A stretch of DNA of 64,000 bases from an uncultured Thiotrichaceae bacterium (GCA_964466455.1 CAYXNL010000003.1:7268-71267), one strand, 5' to 3'; counted from the first letter of the stretch, positions 1,325 to 58,041 are shown. Notes: generated from the sequence alone by a model not told the origin. A program made the numbers and translations.

Positions 1325-1732
1325 TTATCGTCGTCCGAGTTCAATACCAATCATATCATCTGAATCACTACCTGGCACCATCATAATGCTTTTTGATGGA
1401 ACACCTAAAGCCACCAGCCAGTCAGTCAGTTCCTGTACCCACAGTTCACCTTCTTCACCACCGGGATAATGCAGCAAAATAACCGTATTCGGTTCAGTTT
1501 CATAACGGTTCATCCAGTTTCTGATGACTTTTTTTAAAACCGGTATTTTTACAATCTTGCTCCCACTTCGATTCATTTCCCATTGCTCAGATGTAAGTAC
1601 CCATGGTTTATTCTGCGTTGCATAAACACTGGAAAATGCTGTCAACAGGAAACAGAATATAACAAACGGTAGTGGGCTAATAACTTGTTTGAAAACCATC
1701 ATTTGTTTAAAAACCATCATCACTCTCATCAT
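1325..1732 (-). CDS. hypothetical exported protein; real start probably one of the ATGs at 1702/1699
   Basis: ORF with hydrophobic N-terminal segment (VISPLPFVIFCFLLTAFSSVYA) followed by a ~100 aa soluble region; no recognisable family. N-terminus carries a duplicated MMVFKQ created by an 18-bp tandem DNA duplication at 1685-1720. Confidence 0.4.
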   Translation of the reverse strand: MMRVMMVFKQMMVFKQVISPLPFVIFCFLLTAFSSVYATQNKPWVLTSEQWEMNRSGSKIVKIPVLKKVIRNWMNRYETEPNTVILLHYPGGEEGELWVQELTDWLVALGVPSKSIMMVPGSDSDDMIGIELGRR

Positions 1733-4700
1733 TCTGGCTGTTGTTTATTTTACTTACTATTTTCTTGATTACCGGTTTATCCCATGATCCAGTAATCGTA
1801 TAGATATCATCACTAATGAGACTGATATTGAACACTTTTTGCAATATAGCAAGGCCTGCACCAACGGCCACGCCACCCAGTAAAGCGCCTCCCGCAAAGG
1901 TAAGTCCACTCGCATGAGGCTTGACTCGCATAAGTAAATCATAGTCATGCCTGACCAGTCCAACATTACCAGTCATTTTAATATTTGCAGATGGAGCCTT
2001 AACATCAAAGTTTTCTAATTTGCCCAACCCATTAGAAAAATCGAGCTCGCCATTAATGGTATCGAAAGAGAATCCTTTTCGATAAACATCACCAAAATCC
2101 AGTGACAGGCGGTTGGTAAGCTCAAATATATTCATCAACCCCAACAGGCGCCCCCCGGCTCCCGGATTCATTTCAAGAATCTGGCCATCTTTAAGCTTAA
2201 AATTAATTTTACCACTTACATTTTTCCATGTAACGGCATAGGGCTCATCTTGCCAGTTGGTATTAAAACTTGCCTCCAGATTACCTCTGTCAATACTTTT
2301 TTCAAATCCCAGTCCGGTCAATGTTGAGCCCATATTATTACTACGGATACTACCGCTCAGTTCTGTTTTATTTTTATACCGCCAATTTGATAACCACGTA
2401 CCTTTTGCCCGGAGAGTCATCGACGGCCCATCAAAGTTAAGTGCATTAATCAGCATTCCGTGTCGATTCCAGTCCGTATCAAGTACCAGATTATGGAAAG
2501 TCAAGCCATTCCATAATAGCGTTTTTACCTTCCAGTTTAATGGTGGAAAGTTTACTGGTTTTATTTTTTTACTTCCCTGCTCATTTCCCTTAGAAGCAAG
2601 TAATGAATATAAATCCAGTTTATCCAGCCTGAGCTTTACTGGGGTATCTTTGTTCAGACCTTTCCCAAAAGACCCTTTGCCTGATATTAATCCTGATTTA
2701 ACCGTAAAACTGACCAGTCCAGTAGAATTTCTTTGTGCATAAAGTTGCAATAGATTCTTACTATCTATATCAACATGTAAACCATTGTTATCCAGTACAT
2801 CAATAGATAGTGATAACGGCAATGGTTTTGCCGAAGGTTTGCTAACTACTTTAGATGCCAATATTGACACCCCTTTCAGTTTAGAATCTGCATTAATATG
2901 CGCCAGATAAGTTTCAGGCTTATAGGGAACAGAAACCGATATATTCCAGAGTGAACGTCCCGATAACCAGTTATGCGGAATCCAGTCATAAATTGCTAAC
3001 AGTTTATCGATATTAAATTTTCCATTAATGCCAAAAATAACTTCAGGTGAGCCATTTTTTGTAATGGTACGCGCTGACAGTTTTATAATCTGGCCATTTG
3101 ATTTTGCGCGCACCGATTTTGCAGAAATGCTATCCCTGGTAAAATGAAATACACCATTTATATCATCCAGAGAATACAATAGCTCAGGATAATACCAGCT
3201 AGCATGAATCAGGCGTAAATCCCCCGTGTAATCAGGCACTACCAAATCAGCATATAAAGGTATATTTAATGATAGATTAAGGTTTGTATCACCATCCATC
3301 TGAAATAATTTTAAGGTATTACCAATAGTATCATTCAGCGGGCTATTCCTGATATAGGCATCCATATTTTTCATTGAGGAAGCAATATTTGCATGAAGAT
3401 GTAGAGATGGATGTTGCATATTCTTTATTTGTGCACTTGCCCCTGTTATATTTCCATTCAGCGTTTTACCTGTCCCATCAGTAATAAACATACTCCGGTT
3501 ATAGAATCTTATCTTTGCTGACATATCTGTAATGGCCGGCCATTTATCAAGAAACTTCAACGTCAGGTTAGCGGGCTGGAACACCACTTCCATTACCCCA
3601 CTATTATTTTTATAAGGAAAATCGCTGAGACTTCCATGTAATATAAACTGCCCCTGTTTAACATAGCCATCTGTAACAGCACCATCAAGCCACCTGACCA
3701 GGGCAGGGTCCATAATACCTACTGGCATGTAATAGGCAGCATATTTTCCATAGGCATCATAGAAATTAGCCTGCATATCTATAAATAAATCCTGTTTTTT
3801 TAGTCCCTGTACAGGCTGTTTCTGTGCAACCTTTATAACCGGTGTTACGGTTTGCTTTTGCTGTGCTCTGATAAACAAACGTGAATAAATATCGATATGG
3901 GCATTTTTTATATGCAGCGCGGGCGCCTGTAGCGACCAGCCATGATCCTGATTGAAATTTTTGGATAAGGTAATAACCGCTTTGCCTTCAAGTAAATCAA
4001 AGTGCATTGATTTACGAAACAGGTTGGCAAACCTGATATGTGCATTTTCTGTAAGCAGATTAAGTGACAGGCGATTTTTTCTATAGTGGATATCAGCATC
4101 AATACCACTAATCTTTGCGGGCACATCAGGAAGTGTTACGCCAGCATTAACAAATTCCCCCTGTAACTGCATTGCATCCGGATGATCGTAAGAATAAAGA
4201 AAACGAAGATTATAAATATCCCCAACCGGTTTAATTCTCGTCAACAGGTCAAGTTGTTTATTATTAACACCAAGTCTGGCCAGCTTCAGCATATCCTGAA
4301 TGCGCAGAAAATCAGCATTAATAAAGATATTTTTATTATCAAATCCGGCTGAAATACTGGCCACATGGGGCCAGTATGCTTTACCTGACTGTTGCATTGC
4401 AAGATTGGCAATACGTAATCTCCAGGCCTGATGAAACCGGCTCAGGCGCAGCCTGGCTGATAGTTTGTCAACATGCCATGGTTTAATCTTTTTTTCGATG
4501 CTTGAAAATGAAAACTTACTGGCAGCAATAGTAGCCACTAACTCAGTCGGTTTATTTTTTACCAGATTCCCCCAGATAGAGGTATTTAATATACCGTTAA
4601 ATGTATATTTTGGTAACCATTTGAATTTTTTCTGCCATTGACTCAGTATGATACCCTTACCTTCAACATAAAATTTTCCAGTGGCAGTACTACCCAGATC

Positions 4701-5351
4701 ACCATCAAACCGGGTACTAATTCGAAGTGAACGTCCATAATCCTTCGGCAATTGCATACTTAACTGTAATGCATGATGATCTCCATAATTTTCAGCATCA
4801 ATATTAACGTTATGCAGATCCAGTGATAATTTATTTTCCGTAAAATCCCGATAGTAGATATTACTTTTAAGCAGAGAATAATTGGCATGTTGCAGGGTAT
4901 AAAGTAATTTTTTTGACACCCCGCCAGAGGTGTCATTTTTAAATTCCATCCCCTGTATTACCCATCTGTTGTCAGCATGTCTTTCTATTGAAACATCAAC
5001 ACCAACCAGGCTGATTTCACTTACCGTTAACGACCATCTAAGTAAACTTCTAATGGGATCAAGTGCAAACACAAACTTGTCAAAATGAAAAACCGGTACA
5101 TTATTTTTTGCATTATAGATGGTCACATTGAGCAGCTTCAGCCGTGGTGAAAACCAGTGTATATCAGCACCAATTTTCTCAATATGTACGGGCAAACCAA
5201 TCTGCTGGCTTAACTGTGTCTCAATTTCTGTTTTATACCCGGTAGCATAAGGCAAAATTGCCCGGACAATACTAAATGAAATAGCAGCAAGAATTAATAT
5301 CACTGCCAGCATGACAATAATACAAACACGAAACTGCAGTAACCAGCGCAT
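1707..5351 (-). CDS. yhdP: AsmA-family intermembrane phospholipid transport protein YhdP
   Basis: 1214 aa; N-terminal membrane anchor MRWLLQFRVCIIVMLAVILILAAISFSIVRAILPY aligns with E. coli YhdP N-terminus. Giant beta-rich protein; conserved position downstream of maf-rng. Confidence 0.85.
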   Translation of the reverse strand: MRWLLQFRVCIIVMLAVILILAAISFSIVRAILPYATGYKTEIETQLSQQIGLPVHIEKIGADIHWFSPRLKLLNVTIYNAKNNVPVFHFDKFVFALDPIRSLLRWSLTVSEISLVGVDVSIERHADNRWVIQGMEFKNDTSGGVSKKLLYTLQHANYSLLKSNIYYRDFTENKLSLDLHNVNIDAENYGDHHALQLSMQLPKDYGRSLRISTRFDGDLGSTATGKFYVEGKGIILSQWQKKFKWLPKYTFNGILNTSIWGNLVKNKPTELVATIAASKFSFSSIEKKIKPWHVDKLSARLRLSRFHQAWRLRIANLAMQQSGKAYWPHVASISAGFDNKNIFINADFLRIQDMLKLARLGVNNKQLDLLTRIKPVGDIYNLRFLYSYDHPDAMQLQGEFVNAGVTLPDVPAKISGIDADIHYRKNRLSLNLLTENAHIRFANLFRKSMHFDLLEGKAVITLSKNFNQDHGWSLQAPALHIKNAHIDIYSRLFIRAQQKQTVTPVIKVAQKQPVQGLKKQDLFIDMQANFYDAYGKYAAYYMPVGIMDPALVRWLDGAVTDGYVKQGQFILHGSLSDFPYKNNSGVMEVVFQPANLTLKFLDKWPAITDMSAKIRFYNRSMFITDGTGKTLNGNITGASAQIKNMQHPSLHLHANIASSMKNMDAYIRNSPLNDTIGNTLKLFQMDGDTNLNLSLNIPLYADLVVPDYTGDLRLIHASWYYPELLYSLDDINGVFHFTRDSISAKSVRAKSNGQIIKLSARTITKNGSPEVIFGINGKFNIDKLLAIYDWIPHNWLSGRSLWNISVSVPYKPETYLAHINADSKLKGVSILASKVVSKPSAKPLPLSLSIDVLDNNGLHVDIDSKNLLQLYAQRNSTGLVSFTVKSGLISGKGSFGKGLNKDTPVKLRLDKLDLYSLLASKGNEQGSKKIKPVNFPPLNWKVKTLLWNGLTFHNLVLDTDWNRHGMLINALNFDGPSMTLRAKGTWLSNWRYKNKTELSGSIRSNNMGSTLTGLGFEKSIDRGNLEASFNTNWQDEPYAVTWKNVSGKINFKLKDGQILEMNPGAGGRLLGLMNIFELTNRLSLDFGDVYRKGFSFDTINGELDFSNGLGKLENFDVKAPSANIKMTGNVGLVRHDYDLLMRVKPHASGLTFAGGALLGGVAVGAGLAILQKVFNISLISDDIYTITGSWDKPVIKKIVSKINNSQNDESDDGF

Positions 5352-47576: not shown

Positions 47577-47915
47577 TTATTTCTTCTGCCAGCTTGCTCC
47601 CGGTTTTATATACATACCGGGTTTTGACCTCTCAATGGCTTTTTTACCCGCCAGTGCCTCAACAGCAGCAACAGTGGTTCCATTGCGTCGGGCAATTGCT
47701 TCATACAATTGCTTTCGCTTCTGGTTTATATCCTGTATCAGGGCTTTCACCTCACTATTAGGCACGGTTACCGCCTGAAGATAACCACTGGTCGTTTCAC
47801 CAACCAGCCCCCGTTGCTTGGCAGTGTGTAAATCAATAGCCATCGCATAGCTGGAAAAAACCAGCAGAAAAAAGGCCATAAAAGAGAATGATAAGTTTCT
47901 GTTAACTTTATTCAT
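47577..47915 (-). CDS. ydbL: YdbL (DUF1318) periplasmic protein
   Basis: 112 aa; signal peptide and conserved DLHTAKQRGLVGE...GYLQAV motif of YdbL family; last gene of the ydbH-ynbE-ydbL operon. Confidence 0.75.
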   Translation of the reverse strand: MNKVNRNLSFSFMAFFLLVFSSYAMAIDLHTAKQRGLVGETTSGYLQAVTVPNSEVKALIQDINQKRKQLYEAIARRNGTTVAAVEALAGKKAIERSKPGMYIKPGASWQKK

Positions 47916-48115
47916 TAGAATAACCCACTGTCTTTATTAAACGCATTATCGAGCTGTTTATCCACTTTTATCCGTATTTCCTGCTGGATTTTTATATTGA
48001 GATTAATGGTTATGGGCTTATCCGGTGCCTCCACCTTAACCGTTGGCGAGCAACCATATAGTAAAACAGGAACGACCAGGGAAAACAGTAGAAAAAAAGA
48101 AACCGGTAATTTCAT
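47915..48115 (-). CDS. ynbE: YnbE-like small lipoprotein
   Basis: 66 aa; lipobox LLYGCSPTVKVEAPDKPITINLNI matching E. coli YnbE. Confidence 0.75.
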   Translation of the reverse strand: MKLPVSFFLLFSLVVPVLLYGCSPTVKVEAPDKPITINLNIKIQQEIRIKVDKQLDNAFNKDSGLF

Positions 48116-48156
48116 ATAAGTATTTCCATCGTAGTTTTACTGTCGGGCCTGACCGA

Positions 48157-50721
48157 CTAATGATATTTTTTTCTAACGGCTGCGTCGATACTGTCATTCA
48201 GGCCCTGTGTATAGCGTAAGCTTTTAAGCAGGTCTTTTATATTCTGTTGTGTATTAATGTTCAGCTTCACCCGCTGGTTCTTACCCAGCTCGGGGCTGAC
48301 TCCTGCCAGATGGAGTGCCGCACTCATCCTGCCATCCGGAGTATAGGACAAATTAGCCGCCAGTTTACTGTAACGAAAATCCCGCAATGCCTTTAACACA
48401 ATAGTTGACAGCGGGCTGGTTGAAATTTGTCCTTTGCCAGTTTTCGGCTGATAGCGAATATACCCTTTTCTGCCTGCATTATCAAAATAACCCTGATGAA
48501 TATAAATACCCTGTTGATTTAATTCAATGGGTAATACGCCATCGAGTTTACCATCAACAGATAACCCCGGTAATGGCTGTGATCGGGCAATGCTAGCTAA
48601 ATTAATATTACGTATTTTCAGGGTAAACCGGTTTACCGGATGATTAAAATCCAGCGTTATCTTTCTGCTATAAAAACGTCCATCAAAAATATGACCTTCC
48701 AGGTTATGAAGAGTAATAACCGGCAGGTAATATTTTTTTTCATGATTCAACACAAGTTGCAGATGAATATTACTGATTAATACACCGCTATCAAGGTGTT
48801 TCAGCCGGATTAAACCGGTATGACCAATACGTTTTTCTGGCATAGATTTCACCGTTTGCAATACCGGCAGTATATTAAAATTCTGCACCGTATTTAACCC
48901 TGAGAACACGATTTGCTGATAAAAACCACCCACATTTTTCATCTGTAACCGGGTTGACAGCTGAAAAGGTTTATTTGCCCACCATTGCATAGAGGCATGA
49001 AGAGCAACCCTGCCGCTTATGATATCCACAAGATAAGGCCACGGTTTAACAAGCCGGCTCAGTCTGTCTGAATCAGCAGACAGCTTAATTTCCCTGTCTG
49101 TATCAATTGTCAGCATACCATGATTATGCTGAATATTGTGACTGCCGTTAAAGCTAAACTTTGCCGGTAACTCGGCAGAAAATAAATGGCCATTAAATTT
49201 TATTTTTTCATTAGCCTTAGTAATATGCAATATAACATCCCTGCCTTTTAGCTGAATTAACCTGCCATTAGTAAAACGCTGAAGAGCCAGAATCGATCTA
49301 CTTGCAATATTTATAGCAAAGGCAGTATCACTACCATAGGCTGCGTTTTTTTCATTAGCCGGATTAATATCAATATTCCCATACAGCTTAATTACCGCAT
49401 TCTTTATTTGTGTATCGTCAATATCCAGCTTTTTATAGCGAATAAAACTGCCACGATGCAGGACAATTTGCGAGCCATTTTTTAAGGCGTTAATATTAAA
49501 AATAAAACTCGCCTCAGGATGCTCAACACCACCACCCTGCCATCGAATCTGATTACCTGTTAATGTAACCAGCGCAAGCTCTTTACGAGCAGATTGTTTT
49601 TCCCTGATAATATTTTTATCTGCATTATTTATGCGCTGATTTTTAGGTGGCATACCATCCTGTAGCAACATAGCAACAGGAAGAGTTATTTTTCCACTGA
49701 TCGGATCAATAATAAATGCCGCCACCTGTTTTTTTGTTACCCGTTCTTTTGTTACCCGTTCTTTTGTTATCTGCTCTTTTGTTACCTGTTCTTTTCTACC
49801 AGCAGATAGCCTGCTGTTTTTTATATCCATAAAATCCAGTTTTTGTAACAGTTTTATTATTTTCTGTATATTAAGCTGATATTCAGCCCTGATTACTTTG
49901 TCACTCAGGATAATATGTAATAATGCCGTACGCGATTGATCCAGATTGATACTGATGGTATTCGCTGAAGAAATTTTTACTGTTAATTCCTCTGGCAGGT
50001 CAGGTATATTTAATCTTAGTGATAGCTCTGTATTTTCTTTTGCGGTTTCTATTTTATGGAAATCGAGGCTAATACGCCGGTTATTGAACCCCTTAAAAGG
50101 GTTTCCATGTAGTTGTAATGTATCAATATAAAGCTGCTTAAAGGGTATTTTTTCTCGCCAGTTAGTCTGAAACTGCCTGAATAGCTGCCGCAATACTACA
50201 GATTGTGAAACTAACGGGCGTTTTTTCGCTGCAATTTTATTAGTAGACGGTTTTATATTGGCGGGAACATTCTGCCTACTTTTATCAGCAGGGACTGATG
50301 CATTACTGGCTACGGCCATCCCCGATGTTAAACTGGAGAATGTCTTTTTTGGCGTGGTAAGTTTTGTTATCTGCAAGTCTCTGATCATTATTTTATCTAT
50401 AACCACTTTACCCTGAGCAGCAATAAACAGATCCTGATTACTGTATTGCAGCTTTATCCCTTTTACCCGCACTTGATAAACTGCCGAAGATGCTGTCTGA
50501 TCAACCGGATTCAGATTAAAGATTAGTGAAGAAATTTGTGTTTGATGTCCACCAATTTTATCTATTTTTAATTGCTGCAGACGAATACCTGCCTGATATA
50601 ATTTTTCTTCTGCCAGTAACGGTAATAATGATTGAACAATAGCCGCACGATATGCCAGGCCAGTAATAATAGCCAGTATTAATATAATCAGAAAAATAAA
50701 TATCCACTTTAATACTTTCAT
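48157..50721 (-). CDS. ydbH: AsmA-like intermembrane phospholipid transport protein YdbH
   Basis: 854 aa; N-terminal anchor MKVLKWIFIFLIILILAIITGLAY, beta-rich body; conserved ydbH-ynbE-ydbL gene order. Contains in-frame VTKEQ/VTKER pentapeptide repeats. Confidence 0.8.
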   Translation of the reverse strand: MKVLKWIFIFLIILILAIITGLAYRAAIVQSLLPLLAEEKLYQAGIRLQQLKIDKIGGHQTQISSLIFNLNPVDQTASSAVYQVRVKGIKLQYSNQDLFIAAQGKVVIDKIMIRDLQITKLTTPKKTFSSLTSGMAVASNASVPADKSRQNVPANIKPSTNKIAAKKRPLVSQSVVLRQLFRQFQTNWREKIPFKQLYIDTLQLHGNPFKGFNNRRISLDFHKIETAKENTELSLRLNIPDLPEELTVKISSANTISINLDQSRTALLHIILSDKVIRAEYQLNIQKIIKLLQKLDFMDIKNSRLSAGRKEQVTKEQITKERVTKERVTKKQVAAFIIDPISGKITLPVAMLLQDGMPPKNQRINNADKNIIREKQSARKELALVTLTGNQIRWQGGGVEHPEASFIFNINALKNGSQIVLHRGSFIRYKKLDIDDTQIKNAVIKLYGNIDINPANEKNAAYGSDTAFAINIASRSILALQRFTNGRLIQLKGRDVILHITKANEKIKFNGHLFSAELPAKFSFNGSHNIQHNHGMLTIDTDREIKLSADSDRLSRLVKPWPYLVDIISGRVALHASMQWWANKPFQLSTRLQMKNVGGFYQQIVFSGLNTVQNFNILPVLQTVKSMPEKRIGHTGLIRLKHLDSGVLISNIHLQLVLNHEKKYYLPVITLHNLEGHIFDGRFYSRKITLDFNHPVNRFTLKIRNINLASIARSQPLPGLSVDGKLDGVLPIELNQQGIYIHQGYFDNAGRKGYIRYQPKTGKGQISTSPLSTIVLKALRDFRYSKLAANLSYTPDGRMSAALHLAGVSPELGKNQRVKLNINTQQNIKDLLKSLRYTQGLNDSIDAAVRKKYH
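49726..49800. repeat. 15-bp in-frame tandem repeat (about 4.5 copies of CCGTTCTTTTGTTAC) inside ydbH
   Basis: gtttttttgttac ccgttcttttgttac ccgttcttttgttat ctgctcttttgttac ctgttcttttctacc; encodes (VTKEQ/VTKER)n on the minus strand. Confidence 0.85.
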
Positions 50722-50799: not shown

Positions 50800-53532
50800 T
50801 TAGTGATCAAGTAATGCTCTGATTTTCATACTCAGATCAATCTGGGTATACGGCTTATTAAGCAGATTCGCTCTGAACCGTGACTGGCCATTGCGTGCGA
50901 TGGCTTTTTCCGTATAACCGGAGGTTAATAATACTTTAAGTGACGACTGCAATGTCGTCAGCTTTTCTGCCAGTTCAAATCCATTTAGACCACCCGGCAT
51001 AACAACATCACTAAACAATAGATCAATGGATGATTCTTCTTCAAATTTCGTCAATGCCTGCGCAGCGTTACTGGCAGTAATAATCCGATAACCCTGCCGG
51101 GATAATGTCTCTTCAACCAGCTCAACCAATCCAGGTTCATCATCAACAACCAGAATGGTTTCATTCCCTTTGGGGAAAGCCGTGCGGGAGGGAGAAGGTT
51201 TCGGTTGTTCTTCTTTTTCCTGACGGACACGTGGTAGATAAATTCGAAAGGTTGAGCCAATACCCTGTTCTGAATAAACCTTTATGGCGCCAGCTGAGCG
51301 TTTTACAAAACCGAACACCATCGCCAGACCTAAACCGGTTCCCTTGCCCTGTTTTTTTGTACTGAAAAAAGGTTCAAAAACACGTTCCTGAACCTCTGTA
51401 GACATGCCTTCCCCATTGTCACTCACCGCTAGCTCAACATATTGCCCAGGTATCACCTCTGGGTCATAGCGGCAATAATCTTCATCCAGTACAACATTAG
51501 CGGTTTCTATGGTTAACAAACCGCGCCCTTTCATTGCGTCACTGGCATTAATAATAAGGTTTAGCAAGGCATCTTCAAAATCACCGGAGGAAATTTCCGT
51601 TAGCCATATCGGCTGACAGAAATTATGTTCAATTTCCACCTGCGGTGTTAACGAACGGGCGATTAAATTACTCATGTCTTTAATCCGCCGGTTAATATCA
51701 GTAACCGCCGAACTGGATACATCACTGCGCGAAAACCCGAGTAACTGCCGGGTAAGATCAACAGCACGTTGCGCTGCATGGCGAATGCCCTTTATCCTTT
51801 TCTGTATTTCCTCATCAGTTTCAATATGCGGCTCAAGCAGATCAAGATTCCCTAGTATAATACCAAGAATATTATTAAAATCATGGGCAATACCTCCTGT
51901 CAGTTGGCCGATTGCCTCCATTTTCTGTGTCCGACGCAGGGCAATTTCAGTTCGCTGATGCTCACTAATATCGCGCCATACCGCATGCAATACGGTTTCA
52001 TCACCGAAGGGAATAGCCGTAAACAAAACTTCTACCGGAAAGGTTTGACCATTTTGTCGCTTATGTACCCATTCAAAACGATGACTACCTTTTTCCCTGG
52101 CAATAGCCATCATTTCATTGGCTTTTTCAATGGACTCTCTACCATCCGGTTGTAGCGGTGGTGATAGATCGGAGGGACTAGTTTGCAATACGGCCTTTTT
52201 ATCCGCATACCCCAGCATGCTGACCATTGCCTGGTTACAGTCAACAAATCGTCCTTCTTCAAGAATAAGCAACGCATCGGTTGATTTTTCAAACAGAGTA
52301 ACATATTTTTTCTCGCTTTCCTGTAGCGTTTTCTCCGCCTGTTTACGTCTGCTTATATCGGTATAAACACCGCAGACGGCATAAATTTTATTTTCGCTGT
52401 CAAATAGCGGAAACTGGTCTGATATATAATGATGCACACCCCCATTATGCAAAATAGTTTCCTCAGATTTTATCCTCCTCCCGTTTGCAATAATGGCTTC
52501 ATCATCACTGAAAAACACATCGTTACGACCGGAAGAAGAAACTTCTTTATCTGTTTTACCAATAATGTCTTCATGCGCAGTATGAAACAGCGTTTCATAC
52601 TGCCGGTTAACAAAAATATAACGCCCGGCAAGATCTTTTGCATAAACGATGGCCGGGGAATGGTCCATAATCGCCTGTAAATTACGCTGGTTTCTGGCAT
52701 TCATCTCTCGCAACCGGTACCGTTCCGTAACATCACTGAACACCAGCACCATACCTTGAACCTCAGCATTGTCACCATTGCGAATCGGCGCAGCAGAATC
52801 GGCAATCTGGTACTCACACCCGTCTCTGGCTATTAATGTGGTGTGGTTGCTCAGGTAAACCGTTTTACCGGTGGCAATGACTTTTTCAACTGGATTTTCG
52901 ATTGACGCCCGAGTACTGGCATCAATAATAGGGAAAACTGTTTTAACCGGTAAGCCTTTTGCCTCATTATTAGACCAGCCGGTTAACTGCTCGGCAACCG
53001 GATTCAACAGGGTCAGATTGCCTGCCTGATCCGTAACCATCACCGCATCACCGATAGAATTCAGCGTAATAGACAAATTTTCCTCACTCAGGCGCAGACG
53101 CTCACGGCTACGTTCCAGCTTCCTGAGCAACCGCTTCTGCTTGTCAATTTCGCGATTTAGTGCAATAAAGGTATTTGCCCGTGAACCGACCGGCTTCATC
53201 CGTAATATAATCTGTGCCGACTGTTCATTCTGACTCGGTACCAACAGAAAACCTTCACAACTCGACATAGGTGATTCGCGGTTAGCGTGCGCACACATTA
53301 ATGCCAGTCTCATCGGGGTTCGAGAACGGGTACAGGGTCGTAGTCGAGAACGGATCTCAGTGGATGACAGATTGGTTAGTTCAGCTAGATTAATGCCTGT
53401 CAGCTCTTCGGCGCTGTGTTGTAAAATACGTGAAGCGGCACGGTTGATCGCCAGGATTTCCCCCTCAGCGCTTACCATCAGCATGCCCTCAGGCAACAGA
53501 TCAGCCAGAAAAAGAAATTCAGATGCCTGCAT
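50800..53532 (-). CDS. cytoplasmic multi-PAS hybrid sensor histidine kinase (PAS x ~4, HisKA, HATPase_c, C-terminal receiver)
   Basis: 910 aa; no TM segments; H-box IAHDFNNIL, ATPase G-boxes (DNGEGM, GTGLGLAMV), C-terminal REC (ILVVDDEPGLVEL...DLLFSDVVMPGGLNG). Confidence 0.85.
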   Translation of the reverse strand: MQASEFLFLADLLPEGMLMVSAEGEILAINRAASRILQHSAEELTGINLAELTNLSSTEIRSRLRPCTRSRTPMRLALMCAHANRESPMSSCEGFLLVPSQNEQSAQIILRMKPVGSRANTFIALNREIDKQKRLLRKLERSRERLRLSEENLSITLNSIGDAVMVTDQAGNLTLLNPVAEQLTGWSNNEAKGLPVKTVFPIIDASTRASIENPVEKVIATGKTVYLSNHTTLIARDGCEYQIADSAAPIRNGDNAEVQGMVLVFSDVTERYRLREMNARNQRNLQAIMDHSPAIVYAKDLAGRYIFVNRQYETLFHTAHEDIIGKTDKEVSSSGRNDVFFSDDEAIIANGRRIKSEETILHNGGVHHYISDQFPLFDSENKIYAVCGVYTDISRRKQAEKTLQESEKKYVTLFEKSTDALLILEEGRFVDCNQAMVSMLGYADKKAVLQTSPSDLSPPLQPDGRESIEKANEMMAIAREKGSHRFEWVHKRQNGQTFPVEVLFTAIPFGDETVLHAVWRDISEHQRTEIALRRTQKMEAIGQLTGGIAHDFNNILGIILGNLDLLEPHIETDEEIQKRIKGIRHAAQRAVDLTRQLLGFSRSDVSSSAVTDINRRIKDMSNLIARSLTPQVEIEHNFCQPIWLTEISSGDFEDALLNLIINASDAMKGRGLLTIETANVVLDEDYCRYDPEVIPGQYVELAVSDNGEGMSTEVQERVFEPFFSTKKQGKGTGLGLAMVFGFVKRSAGAIKVYSEQGIGSTFRIYLPRVRQEKEEQPKPSPSRTAFPKGNETILVVDDEPGLVELVEETLSRQGYRIITASNAAQALTKFEEESSIDLLFSDVVMPGGLNGFELAEKLTTLQSSLKVLLTSGYTEKAIARNGQSRFRANLLNKPYTQIDLSMKIRALLDH

Positions 53533-54062
53533 CAGCTTTTGTAATACTCAATACCCGAAACCGCATCCGCTTCATCGGTATGGGACAGATACACGATTAC
53601 ATGACAGCCCGCATCACCATTGGCTATGGTTTGTGCCAGATGGACTTTTGCATAGCCTAGATTCTCCGCAGTAATGATACCAAACACATTTGATGTCATC
53701 ATACACAGACTGGGCCGTCCAATGACTTTTTCTGCAAAGGGGCAGGACTGGCTTTCCAGTACAATCTTGTCTATCCCCTGTGAAACAACTTTAAAATCGC
53801 CCTGAATACGCTGCTTAAAATCAGCCAGCACAGCGCCAACCTGTTCACGGTTAAGACTGGACACGTTCAAGGCCCGACAATAATCCTGATTGATTGCATC
53901 TCCCATGCTCTGGCCGACAATGGAAACAAACCCGGCGGCTTCTTCCACACCGACTACATCCTGCAATGTACCGGACAGTTGCCGTAATAACTCACGCATA
54001 AAACCATCGCGTTCTAGCGGAATTTCAAGACTGGACAGATCACAATCGGTTAACAGGGGCAT
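53532..54062 (-). CDS. small cytoplasmic putative ligand-binding sensor protein (V4R/XylR-N-like?) translationally coupled to the hybrid kinase
   Basis: 176 aa; soluble; Cys-containing motifs ESQSCPFAEKVIGRPSLCMM and GDAGCHVIVYL; its TGA overlaps the kinase ATG (ATGA at 53530-53534). Confidence 0.5.
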   Translation of the reverse strand: MPLLTDCDLSSLEIPLERDGFMRELLRQLSGTLQDVVGVEEAAGFVSIVGQSMGDAINQDYCRALNVSSLNREQVGAVLADFKQRIQGDFKVVSQGIDKIVLESQSCPFAEKVIGRPSLCMMTSNVFGIITAENLGYAKVHLAQTIANGDAGCHVIVYLSHTDEADAVSGIEYYKS

Positions 54063-54337
54063 TGATTACTCCTTACCTTAATAAGCAGGTAATATCAGGG
54101 AACTTCTGATCAAGTCGTACTTGAATATCTTGAATTTAGACTTTATCAAAAACTATTTTTATCTCAAAGCAGAGGAATACTCTACGTATATTATTACAAT
54201 AAAACGCGCTTATAGTAATAAAATAAACGGCAAAAATACAATATAAATACAATATGATTAAACCCTGGTTATTTAGACAGGTCATAATTTCTCGGTATTA
54301 CCCATAAAAAAGCACACAACTAATAGCAGAAAAAATC

Positions 54338-54766
54338 ATGACTGCAAAAAAAACGATTAGCATTGCCGCCCGGCTGGCCGGGATAGGTATTGAAACCATA
54401 CGCTACTATCAGCGTACTGGATTAATTGAGGAACCGGAAAAACCGGTTTCCGGTTTTCGCGTGTATCCACAATCGACGATTAATCGTATCCGCTTTATTC
54501 AACGCGCTAAAAAGCTGGGGTTCAGTCTGGCGGAAATTACTCGTTTACTGAAACTTGATGACGGTAACTGCGCACAAACCCGTGCCATTGCTGAACACAA
54601 ATACGCATTAATTACCGAAAAGATAAAAGATTTGCAAATCATGGCGACTGTACTTGAAAAACAGATCAATAACTGCAAGATAAATATGGACATAGATCAT
54701 TGCCCACTAATATCTTCCCTGGCTGACACTCAGGAAACAGCAAAAAAGCTGCTGACAGATAACTGA
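54338..54766 (+). CDS. MerR-family heavy-metal-responsive transcriptional regulator (ZntR/CadR/PbrR-like)
   Basis: 142 aa; N-terminal wHTH (ISIAARLAGIGIETIRYYQRTGLIEEPEKPVSGFRVY), dimerisation helix, and Cys78/Cys113/Cys122 at the positions of the metal-binding triad of PbrR/CadR/ZntR. Confidence 0.8.
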   Translation: MTAKKTISIAARLAGIGIETIRYYQRTGLIEEPEKPVSGFRVYPQSTINRIRFIQRAKKLGFSLAEITRLLKLDDGNCAQTRAIAEHKYALITEKIKDLQIMATVLEKQINNCKINMDIDHCPLISSLADTQETAKKLLTDN

Positions 54767-54808
54767 CATTGTATAATCGCACCACTTTTTACTTCACCGA
54801 GAGTTACC

Positions 54809-56032
54809 ATGTCTTTAATTCGCCCCTTTGCCGGTTTACGTCCTGTTCCTGAACGTGCAGAAGAAGTCATTGCACCACCCTATGATGTACTGAATTCTGT
54901 CGAAGCCCGTGAACAGGTAAAGGGGCGTCCGTGGAGCTTCCTTCATATCTCCAAAGCTGAAATTGACCTACCGGAAGGTATCGACCCCTATGACCCGGAA
55001 GTATATGAAAAATCAGCAGAAAACCTGAGAAAAATGTTGGACGAAGGTATTTTGATGCGCGAAAACAAAGACTGTTACTATGTTTACCGTCTAATTATGA
55101 ACGATCATATCCAGCTTGGTCTGGTCGCGACCGCTTGCGTTGCCGATTACGATACCAATCGTATTCGCAAGCACGAATTTACCCGCCCGGCAAAAGAAGA
55201 TGACCGCGTACGTCAGATTGAAGCACTCAACGCGCAAACCGGCCCGGTATTACTGGCATACAAATCACAGCCAGATATGGATGCCATTCTGGCAACAACC
55301 ACCCGGCAGCGGCCACTGGTTGATGTAACCGCCGACGATGGCGTACAGCATACTTTCTGGAAAATTGATAGCGATGATACTATCAAAAAAATTACGGCAG
55401 GATTTGATGCCATGACCGCTTTGTATATTGCAGATGGTCACCACCGTTCTGCTTCCGCTTCACGAATTGCCAAAAGCCGTGGTGGTAATGGTAACCAGAA
55501 CAGTGATTATTTTCTCTCGGTAATTTACCCGCATAACCAGATGAATATTCTCGATTATAACCGTGTTATTACCGACTTAAACGGTTTAACTAAACAGCAG
55601 GTACTGGAAAAAACCCAACTGTCATTTAATGTAACAGAAGAGAATGAAGCGGTTCATCCAACCAGGGCAACAGAATTCGGTATGTATCTGGATGGTCAGT
55701 GGTATCGTCTGACAATTCACCCACAATTGATTCCCAATGACCCGGTGCAGTCGCTTGATGTCAGCCTGCTGGCTAATCATTTAATTGAACCGGTTTTAGG
55801 CATTTCTGACCCGCGCACAGATAACCGTATCGACTTTGTCGGTGGTATTCGTGGCCTTGCTGAACTGGAAAAACGGGTTAATAGCGGAGAGATGGCGATT
55901 GCTTTTTCCTTCTTTCCAACCAGTATGAACGCCTTAATGGCCGTTGCGGACGCAGGTGAAGTAATGCCGCCAAAATCAACCTGGTTTGAGCCCAAACTGG
56001 CTGATGGCCTGGTCTCACACGTTCTGGATTAA
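54809..56032 (+). CDS. DUF1015 family protein
   Basis: 407 aa; family-typical N-terminus MSLIRPFAGLRPVPERAEEVIAPPYDVLNSVEARE. Confidence 0.7.
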   Translation: MSLIRPFAGLRPVPERAEEVIAPPYDVLNSVEAREQVKGRPWSFLHISKAEIDLPEGIDPYDPEVYEKSAENLRKMLDEGILMRENKDCYYVYRLIMNDHIQLGLVATACVADYDTNRIRKHEFTRPAKEDDRVRQIEALNAQTGPVLLAYKSQPDMDAILATTTRQRPLVDVTADDGVQHTFWKIDSDDTIKKITAGFDAMTALYIADGHHRSASASRIAKSRGGNGNQNSDYFLSVIYPHNQMNILDYNRVITDLNGLTKQQVLEKTQLSFNVTEENEAVHPTRATEFGMYLDGQWYRLTIHPQLIPNDPVQSLDVSLLANHLIEPVLGISDPRTDNRIDFVGGIRGLAELEKRVNSGEMAIAFSFFPTSMNALMAVADAGEVMPPKSTWFEPKLADGLVSHVLD

Positions 56033-56051
56033 TACAGCAGAGAATAGCATT

Positions 56052-57620
56052 TTGTACGATTTATTACACCAGCGCCTGGCAAAAATCCGCCAGTCGGGTA
56101 AAGAAGAAACCCTGTCCGGTTCAAAAATCGGACTGGAAAAAGAAAGCCTGCGGGTATCCCCTGATGGCGGACTTTCACAACACCCTTCGCCTGCGGCATG
56201 GGGTTCGATGCTAACCAATCCCATGATTACCACCGACTTTTCAGAAGCACTGGCAGAGTTAATCACGCCGCCATGTGATTCAGTTAATGAGGTAATTCAG
56301 TCACTCGATGATATTCAGCATTTTGTCTATCGCCACCTCGATAATGAAATTCTCTGGGCAACCAGTATGCCCTGCGTGGTTGCCGGTGAAACCAGTATTC
56401 CACTGGCTCGTTATGGACGTTCTAACGCCGCACAGATGAAAACAATTTATCGCAAAGGGCTGGGGCTGCGTTACGGTCGCGCCATGCAGGTCATTGCCGG
56501 GGTACATTTTAATTATTCTTATGCTGAAGAATTCTGGTGCTGTTTTCAGCAACTGGAACGAGGCTCGGGTCAACTACAGGATTTTATTTCCGATCACTAC
56601 ATGGGGCTGGTCAGGAATCTGCTGCGTTATGGCTGGTTAGTCCCCTACCTGTTCGGTGCCTCACCCGCTGTATGTAAATCTTTTCTTAACGGACAAAAAA
56701 CACTGTTACAGGAGTTTAATGATAATACCTGTTATGAACCCTACGCCACTTCATTGCGTCTGGGTAATATCGGTTATCAAAATAACAAGGAAGACCTGGC
56801 AGGCATTAAGGCCTGTTATGATTCCGTAGACTGTTATGCGGAAAGTCTGCAATGCGCCATTCGTACCCCGAATCCAGCGTACCAGAAAATCGGCGTAAAG
56901 GTAAACGGTGAATACCGCCAACTGAACACCAATATTCTACAGATAGAGAATGAGTATTACAGTACCGTGCGCCCGAAACCGCTGCTGCACACCAATGAAA
57001 GCCCGGCTTATGCCCTGAAAAAACACGGCATTGCCTATATCGAACTACGTTCCGTTGATGTTAATGCCTATGACCCACATGGCATTCATTCCGAGCAGTT
57101 ATATTTCCTCGAGGTTTTTATGCTGTTTTGCCTGTTGCACGACAGCCCACCACTTAGCAGCAACGAAATCAATACCATTGACCAGAATCTACTGCTGGTT
57201 GCTCATCAGGGTCGCAAACCCGGGCTTACCCTGCAACGCAATAACCACCCCATCAACCTGCAACAGTGGGCAGGTGAGTTATGCCGTGAAATGAAAACCG
57301 TTGCAACATTGCTGGATCAGGCAAATTTCTGCGAAAACTATTTTTCCAGTGTAAAGGCTCAGATTGCCAGCGTTTATGACCCGGATCTAACACCTTCGGC
57401 AAGAATGCTGGCTGAAATGCGTGAACATGAAGAGGGCTTTTATCATTATGCCAAACGTATGTCACAGCATCATTATCTGTATTATAAAAAACAATCCCTC
57501 CCTGCCGAGAAAATTCGTTTTTTTAAACAGTTGGCTGAGCAGTCCATACAACAGCAACAACAGATAGAACAGACCGACCAGATCAGTTTTGATCAGTATC
57601 TTGCCCGGTACTATGCCTAA
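56052..57620 (+). CDS. gshA: glutamate-cysteine ligase (gamma-glutamylcysteine synthetase)
   Basis: Strong alignment with E. coli GshA (LEKESLRV / ITTDFSEALAELITP / MPCVVAGE / YLFGASPAVCKSFL / LRLGNIGYQN / YIELRSVDVN). A TTG at 56052 gives an N-terminus the same length as E. coli GshA (which itself uses TTG) and avoids overlap with DUF1015. The alternative ATG at 56004 overlaps DUF1015 by 29 nt; the ORF-track frame begins at 55986. Confidence 0.85.
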   Translation: MYDLLHQRLAKIRQSGKEETLSGSKIGLEKESLRVSPDGGLSQHPSPAAWGSMLTNPMITTDFSEALAELITPPCDSVNEVIQSLDDIQHFVYRHLDNEILWATSMPCVVAGETSIPLARYGRSNAAQMKTIYRKGLGLRYGRAMQVIAGVHFNYSYAEEFWCCFQQLERGSGQLQDFISDHYMGLVRNLLRYGWLVPYLFGASPAVCKSFLNGQKTLLQEFNDNTCYEPYATSLRLGNIGYQNNKEDLAGIKACYDSVDCYAESLQCAIRTPNPAYQKIGVKVNGEYRQLNTNILQIENEYYSTVRPKPLLHTNESPAYALKKHGIAYIELRSVDVNAYDPHGIHSEQLYFLEVFMLFCLLHDSPPLSSNEINTIDQNLLLVAHQGRKPGLTLQRNNHPINLQQWAGELCREMKTVATLLDQANFCENYFSSVKAQIASVYDPDLTPSARMLAEMREHEEGFYHYAKRMSQHHYLYYKKQSLPAEKIRFFKQLAEQSIQQQQQIEQTDQISFDQYLARYYA

Positions 57621-57636
57621 CAGTAACCATAACCCA

Positions 57637-58041
57637 ATGCGCCAGATATTTTATGACTGCTGGCAATTAAAACACAGCGGGCAGCCACTGGACGCTATGC
57701 AATCCATCATTGCCACCATTATTGAACTTCATCCCGAATACCACGCTTTACTGGAAGATCCATCTTCTCTGGAAAAAGACTTTTCTGTTGAAAATGGGGA
57801 AAGTAATCCATTTCTACATTTAAGCATGCATATTGCTCTGCACGAACAGCTTAGCGGCAACCGACCTGCTGGAATAAAAAATATATATCAGCAACTGTGT
57901 TATCAGCACGGTAGCGCACATGATGCAGAACACGCCATGATGGAATGTCTGGGAGAAAGCCTCTGGCAGGCACAACACAATGGCTGTACACCGGATGAAA
58001 CAGCCTATCTACACTGCCTTAAAAAGTTGGAAAAGCGCTGA
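57637..58041 (+). CDS. DUF1841 family protein
   Basis: MRQIFYDCWQLKHSGQPLD...EYHALLEDP...ENGESNPFLHLSMHIALHEQLSGNRPAGI...AEHAMMECLGESLW matches the DUF1841 consensus. Upstream in-frame ATGs at 57613 and 57589 (ORF-track start) are alternatives. Confidence 0.7.
   Translation: MRQIFYDCWQLKHSGQPLDAMQSIIATIIELHPEYHALLEDPSSLEKDFSVENGESNPFLHLSMHIALHEQLSGNRPAGIKNIYQQLCYQHGSAHDAEHAMMECLGESLWQAQHNGCTPDETAYLHCLKKLEKR

Follow-up and report, generated by a model that had tools for sequence, protein, structure and literature searches.

A MetOD1-family protein as the probable accessory sensor of a soluble hybrid histidine kinase encoded in the same operon

The closest working analogue of the two genes described here, which lie at positions 50800 to 54062 on the minus strand of a 64,000-nucleotide stretch of DNA from an uncultured Thiotrichaceae bacterium (GCA_964466455.1 CAYXNL010000003.1:7268-71267; the whole stretch is called the window below), appears to be the sensor H-NOX with its co-operonic soluble kinase HnoK. 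One of the two genes encodes a small protein of 176 amino acids and the other a hybrid histidine kinase of 910 amino acids that is expected to be soluble. NosP, a FIST-domain sensor of nitric oxide with a co-operonic hybrid kinase, NahK, offers a further comparison. Both arrangements pair a soluble accessory sensor with a co-transcribed multi-PAS hybrid kinase, likewise soluble, next to which no regulator is encoded; the folds of the two sensors are unrelated, FIST in NosP against a predicted V4R/H-NOX fold in the small protein. In Shewanella oneidensis and Vibrio cholerae, H-NOX is a stand-alone sensor of about 180 amino acids encoded directly upstream of a soluble cytoplasmic kinase; it belongs to the same fold superfamily as that predicted for the small protein, and in both cases the range of partners includes kinases and cyclic di-GMP (c-di-GMP) enzymes. 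H-NOX binds HnoK and inhibits its autophosphorylation in the signalling state (PMC7108781), and we propose that the pair in the window likewise acts on autophosphorylation by protein-protein contact. The V. cholerae protein senses oxidants without heme: the cysteine ligands of its zinc site are converted to disulfides, which gives a kinase-inhibiting conformation. That site consists of C149, C174, C182 and Q171, with C149 at the N-terminus of helix alphaG near a glycine hinge (PMC7108781). A homologous zinc site in DmpR (C151, E172, C177 and C185) adjoins the phenol cavity (PMC7264223). DmpR is one of the V4R activators, in which an N-terminal input domain holds a small aromatic ligand in an enclosed cavity beside the Cys/Glu zinc site and passes its signal on by a coiled-coil linker (PMC7264223). 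The pair described here seems to work like H-NOX/HnoK and the V4R sensors and yet fails the defining sequence features of both.

Its sequence places the small protein confidently in the MetOD1 family (Pfam PF18546; 70.5 bits against a cut-off of 23.8, E=2e-19), with its residues 26-157 aligned to profile positions 2-141 of 142, and the same domain is carried by 120 of the 120 homologues listed. Galperin et al. defined MetOD1 in 2018 from response regulators of methanogens, in which the domain accompanies a receiver. Iterative searches showed a link with three domains, HNOB (H-NOX), V4R and ATC hydrolase, and its describers reported three conserved cysteines, common to V4R, and also listed a stand-alone architecture (PMC5847659). 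Its function is still given as unknown in a recent preprint (bioRxiv 10.1101/2024.10.04.616672). Genome annotation already calls the bacterial genes "methanogen output domain 1-containing protein", and we found no literature on the bacterial stand-alone subfamily, on its obligate pairing with a dedicated PAS domain or on its range of outputs. The pair is real and very widespread, and it is probably a signal-input module composed of an accessory sensor and a soluble signalling enzyme. We think it probable that the two genes form one operon for a split sensor kinase, with the small protein as the input subunit acting through the N-terminal PAS domain of the kinase, which we call PAS_N. At the junction (AGC-TGA-TG-CAG) the TGA that ends the small gene and the ATG that starts the kinase gene have the A at 53532 in common, and this 1-nucleotide overlap (TGATG) is the one that the earlier note on this DNA had read for the open reading frame (ORF) at 53532-54062. 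An AAGGAG Shine-Dalgarno sequence 6 nucleotides ahead of the ATG of the small gene is kept in a diverged relative (L005). The features of the pair, all on the minus strand, are as follows.

53532..54062, minus strand: small gene, 176 amino acids, MetOD1 family with predicted V4R/H-NOX/Bet3 fold, proposed accessory sensor (from the ORF and Pfam)
50800..53532, minus strand: gene for the hybrid histidine kinase, predicted soluble, 910 amino acids (from the ORF and Pfam domains)
54069..54074, minus strand: Shine-Dalgarno AAGGAG of the small gene (read from the sequence)
53604..53744, minus strand: segment for the cysteine triad and G128 (homologue alignments)
53742-53744, minus strand: C107 codon, in the invariant CPF (homologue alignments)
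53703-53705, minus strand: C120 codon, in SLCMMTSN (homologue alignments)
53604-53606, minus strand: C153 codon (homologue alignments)
53532..53546, minus strand: C-terminal tail G170-x-E172-Y173 and the TGATG stop/start overlap (alignment and junction sequence)
53128..53532, minus strand: PAS_N, kinase residues 1-135, predicted PAS fold and helical linker (jackhmmer profile, alignment A3)
51961..53064, minus strand: three further PAS domains, kinase residues 157-268, 290-398 and 409-524 (Pfam PAS, PAS_4 and PAS_9)
51229..51909, minus strand: transmitter, HisKA at 542-604 (with H550) and HATPase_c at 653-768 (Pfam)
50821..51156, minus strand: fused receiver, residues 793-904, with D842 (Pfam Response_reg)

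The evidence that carries this explanation is the linkage between the small gene and PAS_N. The 80 genome loci best matching the small protein were taken, their ORFs were called and these were searched with pieces of the window kinase, including a PAS_N profile built by jackhmmer from kinase residues 1-135. In every one of the 77 informative loci (those with at least 300 nucleotides of DNA downstream of the small gene), which come from about ten phyla, PAS_N opens the next gene on the same strand. It starts a median of 13 nucleotides past the stop of the small gene, and the two overlap by 4 nucleotides in ten loci. A reciprocal search from the PAS_N alignment, which used mainly a cyanobacterial-type sub-alignment and is biased to that clade, placed the small gene immediately ahead of PAS_N in 24 of 26 metagenome loci. 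The other two, L108 and L109, have PAS_N without a small gene in 737-799 nucleotides of upstream DNA; at L108 (738-1508) PAS_N stands in a truncated ORF of 256 amino acids with no catalytic domain, apparently a decaying copy. Pairing of this extent is far beyond chance. The conserved unit is the small protein together with the first ~135 residues of its partner, not the whole kinase. The expectation that the small gene would be conserved beside the kinase therefore holds for PAS_N and does not extend to the rest of the kinase, which varies. Across 59 loci the median pairwise identity is 70.7% for the small proteins against 37.1% for the PAS_N partners, and the two distance matrices correlate with r = 0.76, all three values being affected by shared phylogeny and by the choice of loci as the 80 best small-protein matches. 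These figures are consistent with unusually strong constraint on the small protein and with its co-inheritance with PAS_N. For a sensor, such an excess of conservation over that of its partner domain is unusual, and the difference is partly inflated by the way the loci were selected.

The bacterial subfamily is large, with more than 5450 clusters of homologues at 90% identity and 568 at 50% identity. MetOD1 has been described as confined to methanogens, whereas a close relative of the small protein is present in at least 592 genomes when one genome per species is scanned. The scan reached Gamma- and Betaproteobacteria, Planctomycetota, Cyanobacteria (Nostoc, Anabaena and others), Acidobacteriota, Verrucomicrobiota, Gemmatimonadota, Myxococcota, Armatimonadota, Chloroflexota and Oligoflexus, and plasmid records add Alphaproteobacteria (Cereibacter, Sulfitobacter and Paracoccus) and Streptomyces. 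Some genomes have two copies of the module: a Luteitalea sp. (L068 and L087) and Stenomitos frigidus, in which one copy is on plasmid pSFB (L066) and the other on plasmid pSFA (L070). Two copies per genome, in one case on two plasmids, imply paralogue specificity and horizontal mobility.

Profile searches place the small protein in MetOD1 and in no other family. An NCBIfam scan matched no model, neither V4R (PF02830) nor XylR_N (PF06505) gave a Pfam match at E<=0.1, and HNOB (PF07700) gave none. The profile search that the earlier note had called for thus led to a family that its describers relate to HNOB, V4R and ATC hydrolase. An AlphaFold2 model made from 51 homologues (predicted local distance difference test score 88.2, predicted template modelling score 0.81) was compared by Foldseek with solved structures, and the matches were Bet3/TRAPPC3, PoxR, MopR, DmpR and H-NOX, with template modelling (TM) scores of 0.55-0.64 and identities of 12-17%. 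The V4R domains of DmpR, MopR, PoxR and XylR are the best bacterial structural match (PoxR 5frw/5frx, MopR 5kbe and DmpR 6iy8; probability 1.00, TM 0.57-0.64), and H-NOX (6bde) is weaker at TM 0.55, below V4R and Bet3. On the strength of this model, the small protein is predicted to have the Bet3/V4R/H-NOX fold. Sequence searches of the PDB with the family profile and with the MetOD1 domain of a Methylobacter protein gave no meaningful matches, so only the fold comparison ties the family to solved structures. The weak resemblance to V4R/XylR-N modules that had been suspected from the sequence is a real superfamily relationship, borne out by the fold matches to PoxR, MopR and DmpR; it does not amount to a V4R or XylR_N domain, and the small protein also differs from V4R domains in its low identity to them (12-15%) and in being a separate polypeptide that works with a PAS domain. 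The rejection of H-NOX membership was right: the protein has no conserved His, no YxSxR and no HNOB match. PYP-V4R fusions (PMC12826048) and the V4R proteins of Synechocystis Slr0144-0149 were considered and judged not directly relevant.

The cysteine motifs picked out in the earlier note (SQSCPFAE, SLCMM and GDAGCHVIV) hold C107 (SCPF), C120 (SLCMM) and C153 (GCH), and all three residues are invariant or nearly so in the family. Among 51 close homologues the invariant positions are C107-P108-F109, R116, C120-M-x-T-S-N, G128, C153 and G170-x-E172-Y173. In a diverse set of 76 representatives (clustered at 50% identity, 35-60% identical) only 11 columns are at least 90% conserved, and they include the cysteine triad (C107 97%, C120 100%, C153 98%) and G128 (100%). 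Neither an invariant His nor YxSxR is found among the conserved columns of the close homologues or the 76 representatives, and C7 and C62 of the small protein are unconserved in the family. C107, C120 and C153 are the family signature. The G-x-E-Y of the C-terminal tail also marks the end of the MetOD1 domain at the fusion point in fused kinases.

The arrangement of these residues can be compared with the described zinc sites. A long helix (117-135) has C120 at its N-terminus and the invariant G128 further along. C153 comes 33 residues after C120, a spacing equal to that of C149 and C182 in V. cholerae H-NOX (33) and close to that of C151 and C185 in DmpR (34). V. cholerae H-NOX likewise has, in the Cys3+1 metal site of its C-terminal subdomain, a cysteine at the N-terminus of a long helix and another 33 residues on (PMC7108781). 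The overall patterns differ. The small protein has C-x12-C-x32-C with no conserved acidic fourth ligand, where H-NOX has C-x24-C-x7-C, and one cysteine is elsewhere (C107, in another loop, in place of the middle ligand). The Cys-x20-Glu-x4-Cys-x7-Cys pattern of DmpR is not reproduced, only the outer cysteine pair being comparable, and the His and Trp that position phenol in V4R domains are not among the conserved columns of the small protein. A further comparison is with the archaeal REC-MetOD1 regulators such as MA2445 of Methanosarcina acetivorans, which have the Pfam family, the three-cysteine signature and a two-component context in common with the bacterial proteins. In the archaeal regulators the domain comes after a receiver, whereas in bacteria it stands alone upstream of PAS_N proteins or is N-terminal in kinases; this is a subfamily difference and does not exclude the bacterial proteins from MetOD1.

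The kinase agrees in every respect with the earlier description of a protein of 910 amino acids with several PAS domains, HisKA/HATPase, a fused receiver and no membrane segments. Pfam finds four PAS stretches (about 9-115, 157-268, 290-398 and 409-524) as well as HisKA (36.4 bits), HATPase_c (63.3) and Response_reg (62.3), the last three all exceeding their cut-offs. The phospho-accepting His is H550, in the H-box GGIAHDFNNIL, and the receiver Asp is D842. With a Kyte-Doolittle mean of at most 1.23 over any 19 residues, the kinase is expected to lack membrane segments and is predicted to be soluble. A tblastn search with its receiver found no second receiver domain in the 64-kb window; the receiver of the kinase is the sole REC detectable there, in keeping with the earlier statement that no cognate response regulator is adjacent. 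The names CckA, PRK13557 and NahK were all rejected for this kinase, since its NCBIfam scores are under the curated cut-offs (333 against 1000 for CckA, 415 against 631 for PRK13557 and a weak 81.8 against 400 for the NahK/ErcS C-terminal model).

PAS_N has a signature of its own in alignment A3: F6, E15, G24, the invariant N30, a C-S/A-R-S-R motif, R91-x-x-G94 and R111-L112. It is followed by a conserved helical linker, F122-x-x-L-N-x-x-I-x-x-L-x-x-E-I-x-x-R, in which F122, L125, L132, E135 and R139 stand out. PAS_N is a PAS-fold domain, and generic PAS models match 50 of 60 copies. HnoK differs on this point, as the partner here has a dedicated PAS_N and HnoK-type kinases are not known to need one. 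The first of the further PAS domains (motif NHT..DG.E..I.DSAAPI) recurs in many partners, not in all. A PYP-like or LOV-like covalent chromophore on Cys67 of PAS_N was considered and rejected; the cysteine is replaced in several intact pairs.

Beyond PAS_N, the partners differ widely in output. Among 62 of them, HATPase_c occurs in 58, HisKA in 56, a receiver in 31, GAF in 11 and GGDEF with EAL in one, the PAS-GGDEF-EAL protein of Marinobacter denitrificans. In Cereibacter sphaeroides 2.4.1 the partner is a HisKA_2/HWE kinase of 344 amino acids, followed by a response regulator, and a plasmid of Streptomyces has a PP2C/SpoIIE phosphatase as partner; PAS_N opens both (E=9e-21 and E=1e-23, respectively). 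The Streptomyces pair is embedded among genes for RsbA-type anti-sigma, STAS and anti-sigma-kinase proteins, which implies that the module also feeds partner-switching cascades. In that plasmid (L115, 4992-7099, Streptomyces sp.) the MetOD1-like gene overlaps the PAS_N-PP2C/SpoIIE gene by 4 nucleotides. Output that is interchangeable in this way would be typical of a portable input module. The domain also occurs in single chains. Eleven of the representatives at 50% identity are longer proteins with MetOD1 at the N-terminus, the classical place of a sensor domain, followed by PAS and/or GAF, HisKA or HisKA_2, HATPase_c and sometimes REC, and on a Methylobacter sp. plasmid (L116, 2716-4383) MetOD1 forms the N-terminal part of a sigma-54 activator (AAA+/HTH_8), in the exact position that V4R has in DmpR and XylR. 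The fixed sensor and docking domain, the interchangeable outputs, the N-terminal placement in fusions and the upstream gene order together argue for a portable two-part input device.

Several of these loci have features of their own. The Methylobacter fusion gene is flanked by genes for a ZIP metal transporter, a carbonic anhydrase, a zinc-ribbon protein and a cupin, a possible hint at metal sensing. The C. sphaeroides locus (L114, 5901-7996) is on plasmid pDE of strain 2.4.1, and its MetOD1-like gene is RSP_4193, originally annotated "sigma-54 dependent transcriptional regulator". The one hint from experiment is that RSP_4193 is in the list of the RpoHI (heat-shock/singlet-oxygen) regulon of Dufour et al. 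(PMC3441632), and the promoter predicted there is found 18 nucleotides upstream of the RSP_4193 coding sequence in the plasmid record. The operon (small gene, HWE kinase and response regulator) lies directly 3' of genes for a heme oxygenase and an EAL-domain protein. In the closest named genome, a gammaproteobacterial metagenome-assembled genome at 72% identity (L008, 2283-4668), a kinase of 610 amino acids is accompanied by an overlapping separate receiver ORF of 210 amino acids, either a frameshift or a natural split of a hybrid kinase. Three apparent single-chain MetOD1-PAS_N fusions from the short representatives (P0253, P0250 and P0183) were judged from their sequences to be frameshift or assembly artefacts and were not used.

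A mechanism can be proposed for the split kinase. The small protein would be a heme-less member of the H-NOX/V4R/Bet3 fold superfamily, probably a homodimer, that serves as a stand-alone accessory sensor and docks on PAS_N (residues 1-135). The placement and spacing of C120, G128 and C153, which are like those in the zinc sites of V. cholerae H-NOX and DmpR, suggest that the invariant triad of C107, C120 and C153 forms a Cys3 site that most likely holds a metal ion, and the lack of a conserved fourth protein ligand suggests that one coordination position is open, variable or exchangeable. A change at this metal site or in an internal cavity, whether by oxidation, by binding of a metal or ligand or by a small hydrophobic ligand, would alter the complex of the small protein with PAS_N. 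The signal would then pass down the helical linker after PAS_N and set autophosphorylation at H550, and the phosphoryl group would be transferred to D842 of the fused receiver and on to an unlinked Hpt protein or response regulator. Physical binding to PAS_N and the direction in which information would flow are what we infer from the linkage and the fusions; the presence and identity of the metal, perhaps zinc or an Fe-S cluster, and the nature of the signal we can suggest only in outline. A thiol- or metal-centred redox or metal-ligand signal is the one we favour, with low confidence, and a small molecule bound in the cavity is its main alternative. The idea that the small protein supplies the input to the kinase, already put forward in the earlier note, draws support from the pairing in 77 of 77 loci, the V4R-like fold and the N-terminal fusions, and the role itself should still be read as inferred.

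A number of observations weigh against this account. We found no experimental work on any bacterial member in the open-access literature. The three cysteines are taken to be clustered in space only from their spacing and the predicted secondary structure. That spacing (C-x12-C-x32-C) is not that of the V4R/H-NOX zinc motif (C-x24/25-C-x7-C), and because the spacings differ, one cysteine ligand would not be homologous to its counterpart in the V4R/H-NOX site. No fourth metal ligand is conserved. The high conservation of the small protein is partly a biased figure, given that the loci are its 80 best matches. In methanogens MetOD1 follows the receiver (REC-MetOD1), which was read as an output position (PMC5847659). 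Finally, a stand-alone MetOD1 protein on a plasmid of Priestia megaterium (L117, 4007-4624), 33% identical, has no PAS_N partner, which indicates that remote MetOD1 subfamilies use other partners. Next to the Priestia gene is a divergent gene for a STAS-domain protein, and a sigma-factor gene is close by.

The output position in methanogens leads to a different reading, in which the small protein is an output or effector that the kinase controls through PAS_N or the receiver, perhaps an enzyme acting on C-S bonds like ATC hydrolase or a binding protein. MetOD1 was after all defined as a REC-associated "output" domain, its describers suggested an enzymatic activity related to ATC hydrolase (PMC5847659), one close homologue (P0026) also matches the ATC hydrolase family PF14196, and catalytic metals typically sit in sites such as the one proposed here, with three cysteines and an open position. 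We nevertheless consider this reading rather improbable, as the output of the partner varies (kinase, c-di-GMP enzymes, PP2C) while PAS_N stays constant, and many transmitters are hard to fit to one effector. Fusions also place MetOD1 N-terminal to PAS-HisKA or AAA+, and the describers themselves allow that REC-associated domains may be inputs (PMC5847659). If PAS_N were itself the sensor, the small protein could be dedicated to maturing that domain or delivering its cofactor, or be a constitutive structural part of it, and would itself carry no signal. Such a role would fit its strict co-occurrence with a single PAS subtype, its unusually high conservation for a sensor, the near-invariant Cys67 in the C-S/A-R-S-R motif of PAS_N and the part that Bet3-fold proteins play as scaffolds in TRAPP. 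Yet Cys67 is replaced by Ala, Gly or Ser with the small protein intact in L046, L060, L062, L063, L086 and Streptomyces, and MetOD1 is fused straight to HisKA or sigma-54 AAA+ without PAS_N, so MetOD1 can be regulatory in its own right; we judge this role quite improbable. That the adjacency is meaningless, an unrelated or spurious small ORF overlapping the kinase start by chance, is scarcely credible. Short overlapping ORFs are common, and nothing specific speaks for it here; chance adjacency is refuted by the Pfam membership, by more than 5450 clusters at about 60-70% identity, by linkage in 77 of 77 and 24 of 26 loci and by natural fusions.

If the small protein is the input subunit, the consequences reach well beyond this locus. 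To our knowledge, the signal of most cytoplasmic PAS kinases is not known. A large set of them, spread over thousands of protein clusters and the genomes of at least 592 species, among them Nostoc, Anabaena, Planctomycetes, Cereibacter sphaeroides and Streptomyces, has in common a single docking domain and a single input subunit that is separable and extremely conserved, so identifying one ligand or redox mechanism would annotate all such PAS kinases at once. The labels "methanogen output domain", "transcriptional regulator" and "ArsR family" appear misleading for the bacterial members. A module that is small, soluble and portable between outputs is an attractive biosensor part, and C. sphaeroides 2.4.1, with the RSP_4193 operon in the RpoHI stress regulon, is a genetically tractable host. 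A broader proposal, plausible but tentative, is that these proteins make up a very widespread and hitherto unrecognised class of accessory sensor, heme-less, of the H-NOX/V4R fold and with an open coordination site at a Cys3 metal centre, that they dock on a dedicated PAS domain and report one universal cue to four output chemistries in more than 10 phyla. The cue might be an oxidant or thiol stress, a metal or a metal-binding small molecule such as sulfide or nitric oxide, and the outputs would be His-Asp phosphorelay, c-di-GMP, PP2C partner switching and sigma-54 transcription. If true, this would give the family an importance parallel to that of H-NOX and NosP.

The surroundings of the pair are far less constant than the pair itself. 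Clustering of the neighbouring ORFs at the 80 loci found no third conserved gene family, and because none recurs the cassette is self-contained. A Pfam census of 148 flanking proteins found no family in more than 4, and with no recurrent neighbour family the genomic context gives no clue to the signal. A separate receiver protein is nearby in only 8 of the 80 loci; the response regulator is usually encoded elsewhere. In the window, the small gene is divergent from a MerR-type gene, and the features between and beside them are these.

54338..54766, plus strand: MerR-type gene, divergent (ORF and Pfam)
54063..54337, no strand: spacer of 275 nucleotides, 29% G+C, between the small gene and the MerR gene (length and composition)
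54191-54221, no strand: dyad TTATTAC-N17-GTAATAA, unique in the window (1 match against 0.06 expected)

This arrangement raises the question of whether the pair here belongs to a MerR-controlled metal/thiol-stress regulon, with MerR binding the spacer dyad and controlling the sensor-kinase operon, with or without the merR-DUF1015-gshA-DUF1841 genes. The proposal concerns regulation only and is compatible with the small protein being the input subunit. The MerR gene and the small gene do diverge from one another, and they still do so in L005, a relative with 91% identity, in whose spacer the dyad arms are conserved and the centre is variable. The MerR homologue scores 144.7 bits on the Hg(II)-MerR model TIGR02051, just below the cut-off of 150.85, and its C78, C113 and C122 have the cysteine spacing of Hg-MerR (35 and 9 residues). 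By eye, -35-like and -10-like hexamers 19 bp apart flank the dyad on both strands (TTACAA/TAAAAT on the plus strand and TTACTA/TAATAT on the minus strand). Against this stand the absence of a MerR-like gene within 6 kb of the pair in any of the 80 other genomes, a dyad geometry (7-17-7) unlike known MerR operators, and the composition of the spacer, in which promoter-like hexamers are expected by chance at 29% G+C. No convincing sigma-32, sigma-54 or sigma-70 promoter was found 5' of the small gene, the sigma-70 and terminator scans both being at chance level, and no mer transport or reductase genes are adjacent to the MerR homologue. Such a regulon is unlikely; local MerR co-regulation of the pair is possible, and the dyad match may be fortuitous in AT-rich DNA. 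Of the earlier claim of a divergent MerR gene and a 275-bp AT-rich shared region, the arrangement stands and is confined to close relatives. The MerR gene is not part of the module but a lineage-specific neighbour, and only close relatives of the window have MerR, DUF1015, gshA and DUF1841 on one side and YdbH-like genes on the other.

The MerR homologue heads a same-strand cluster, merR-DUF1015-gshA-DUF1841 (54338-58041), that may be a thiol/metal-stress operon. Its gshA ORF (55986-57620) has a TTG start and shares 47 nucleotides with the end of the DUF1015 gene; it encodes 544 amino acids against 538 in related contigs, and the true start is probably slightly downstream of the listed TTG. 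The window belongs to a gammaproteobacterium of marine or hydrothermal metagenomic origin, and contigs identical to the window are present in both GCA_006240755.1 and JGI sample 3300001391 (contig prefix SWIR1). The kinase gene is followed directly by a ydbH-ynbE-ydbL-type cluster (47577-50721), in which a YdbH-like AsmA-like gene of 854 amino acids is followed by small Lipoprotein_19 and DUF1318 genes, and a YhdP-like gene of 1214 amino acids, of the AsmA-like lipid-transport type, lies at 1707-5351 of the window.

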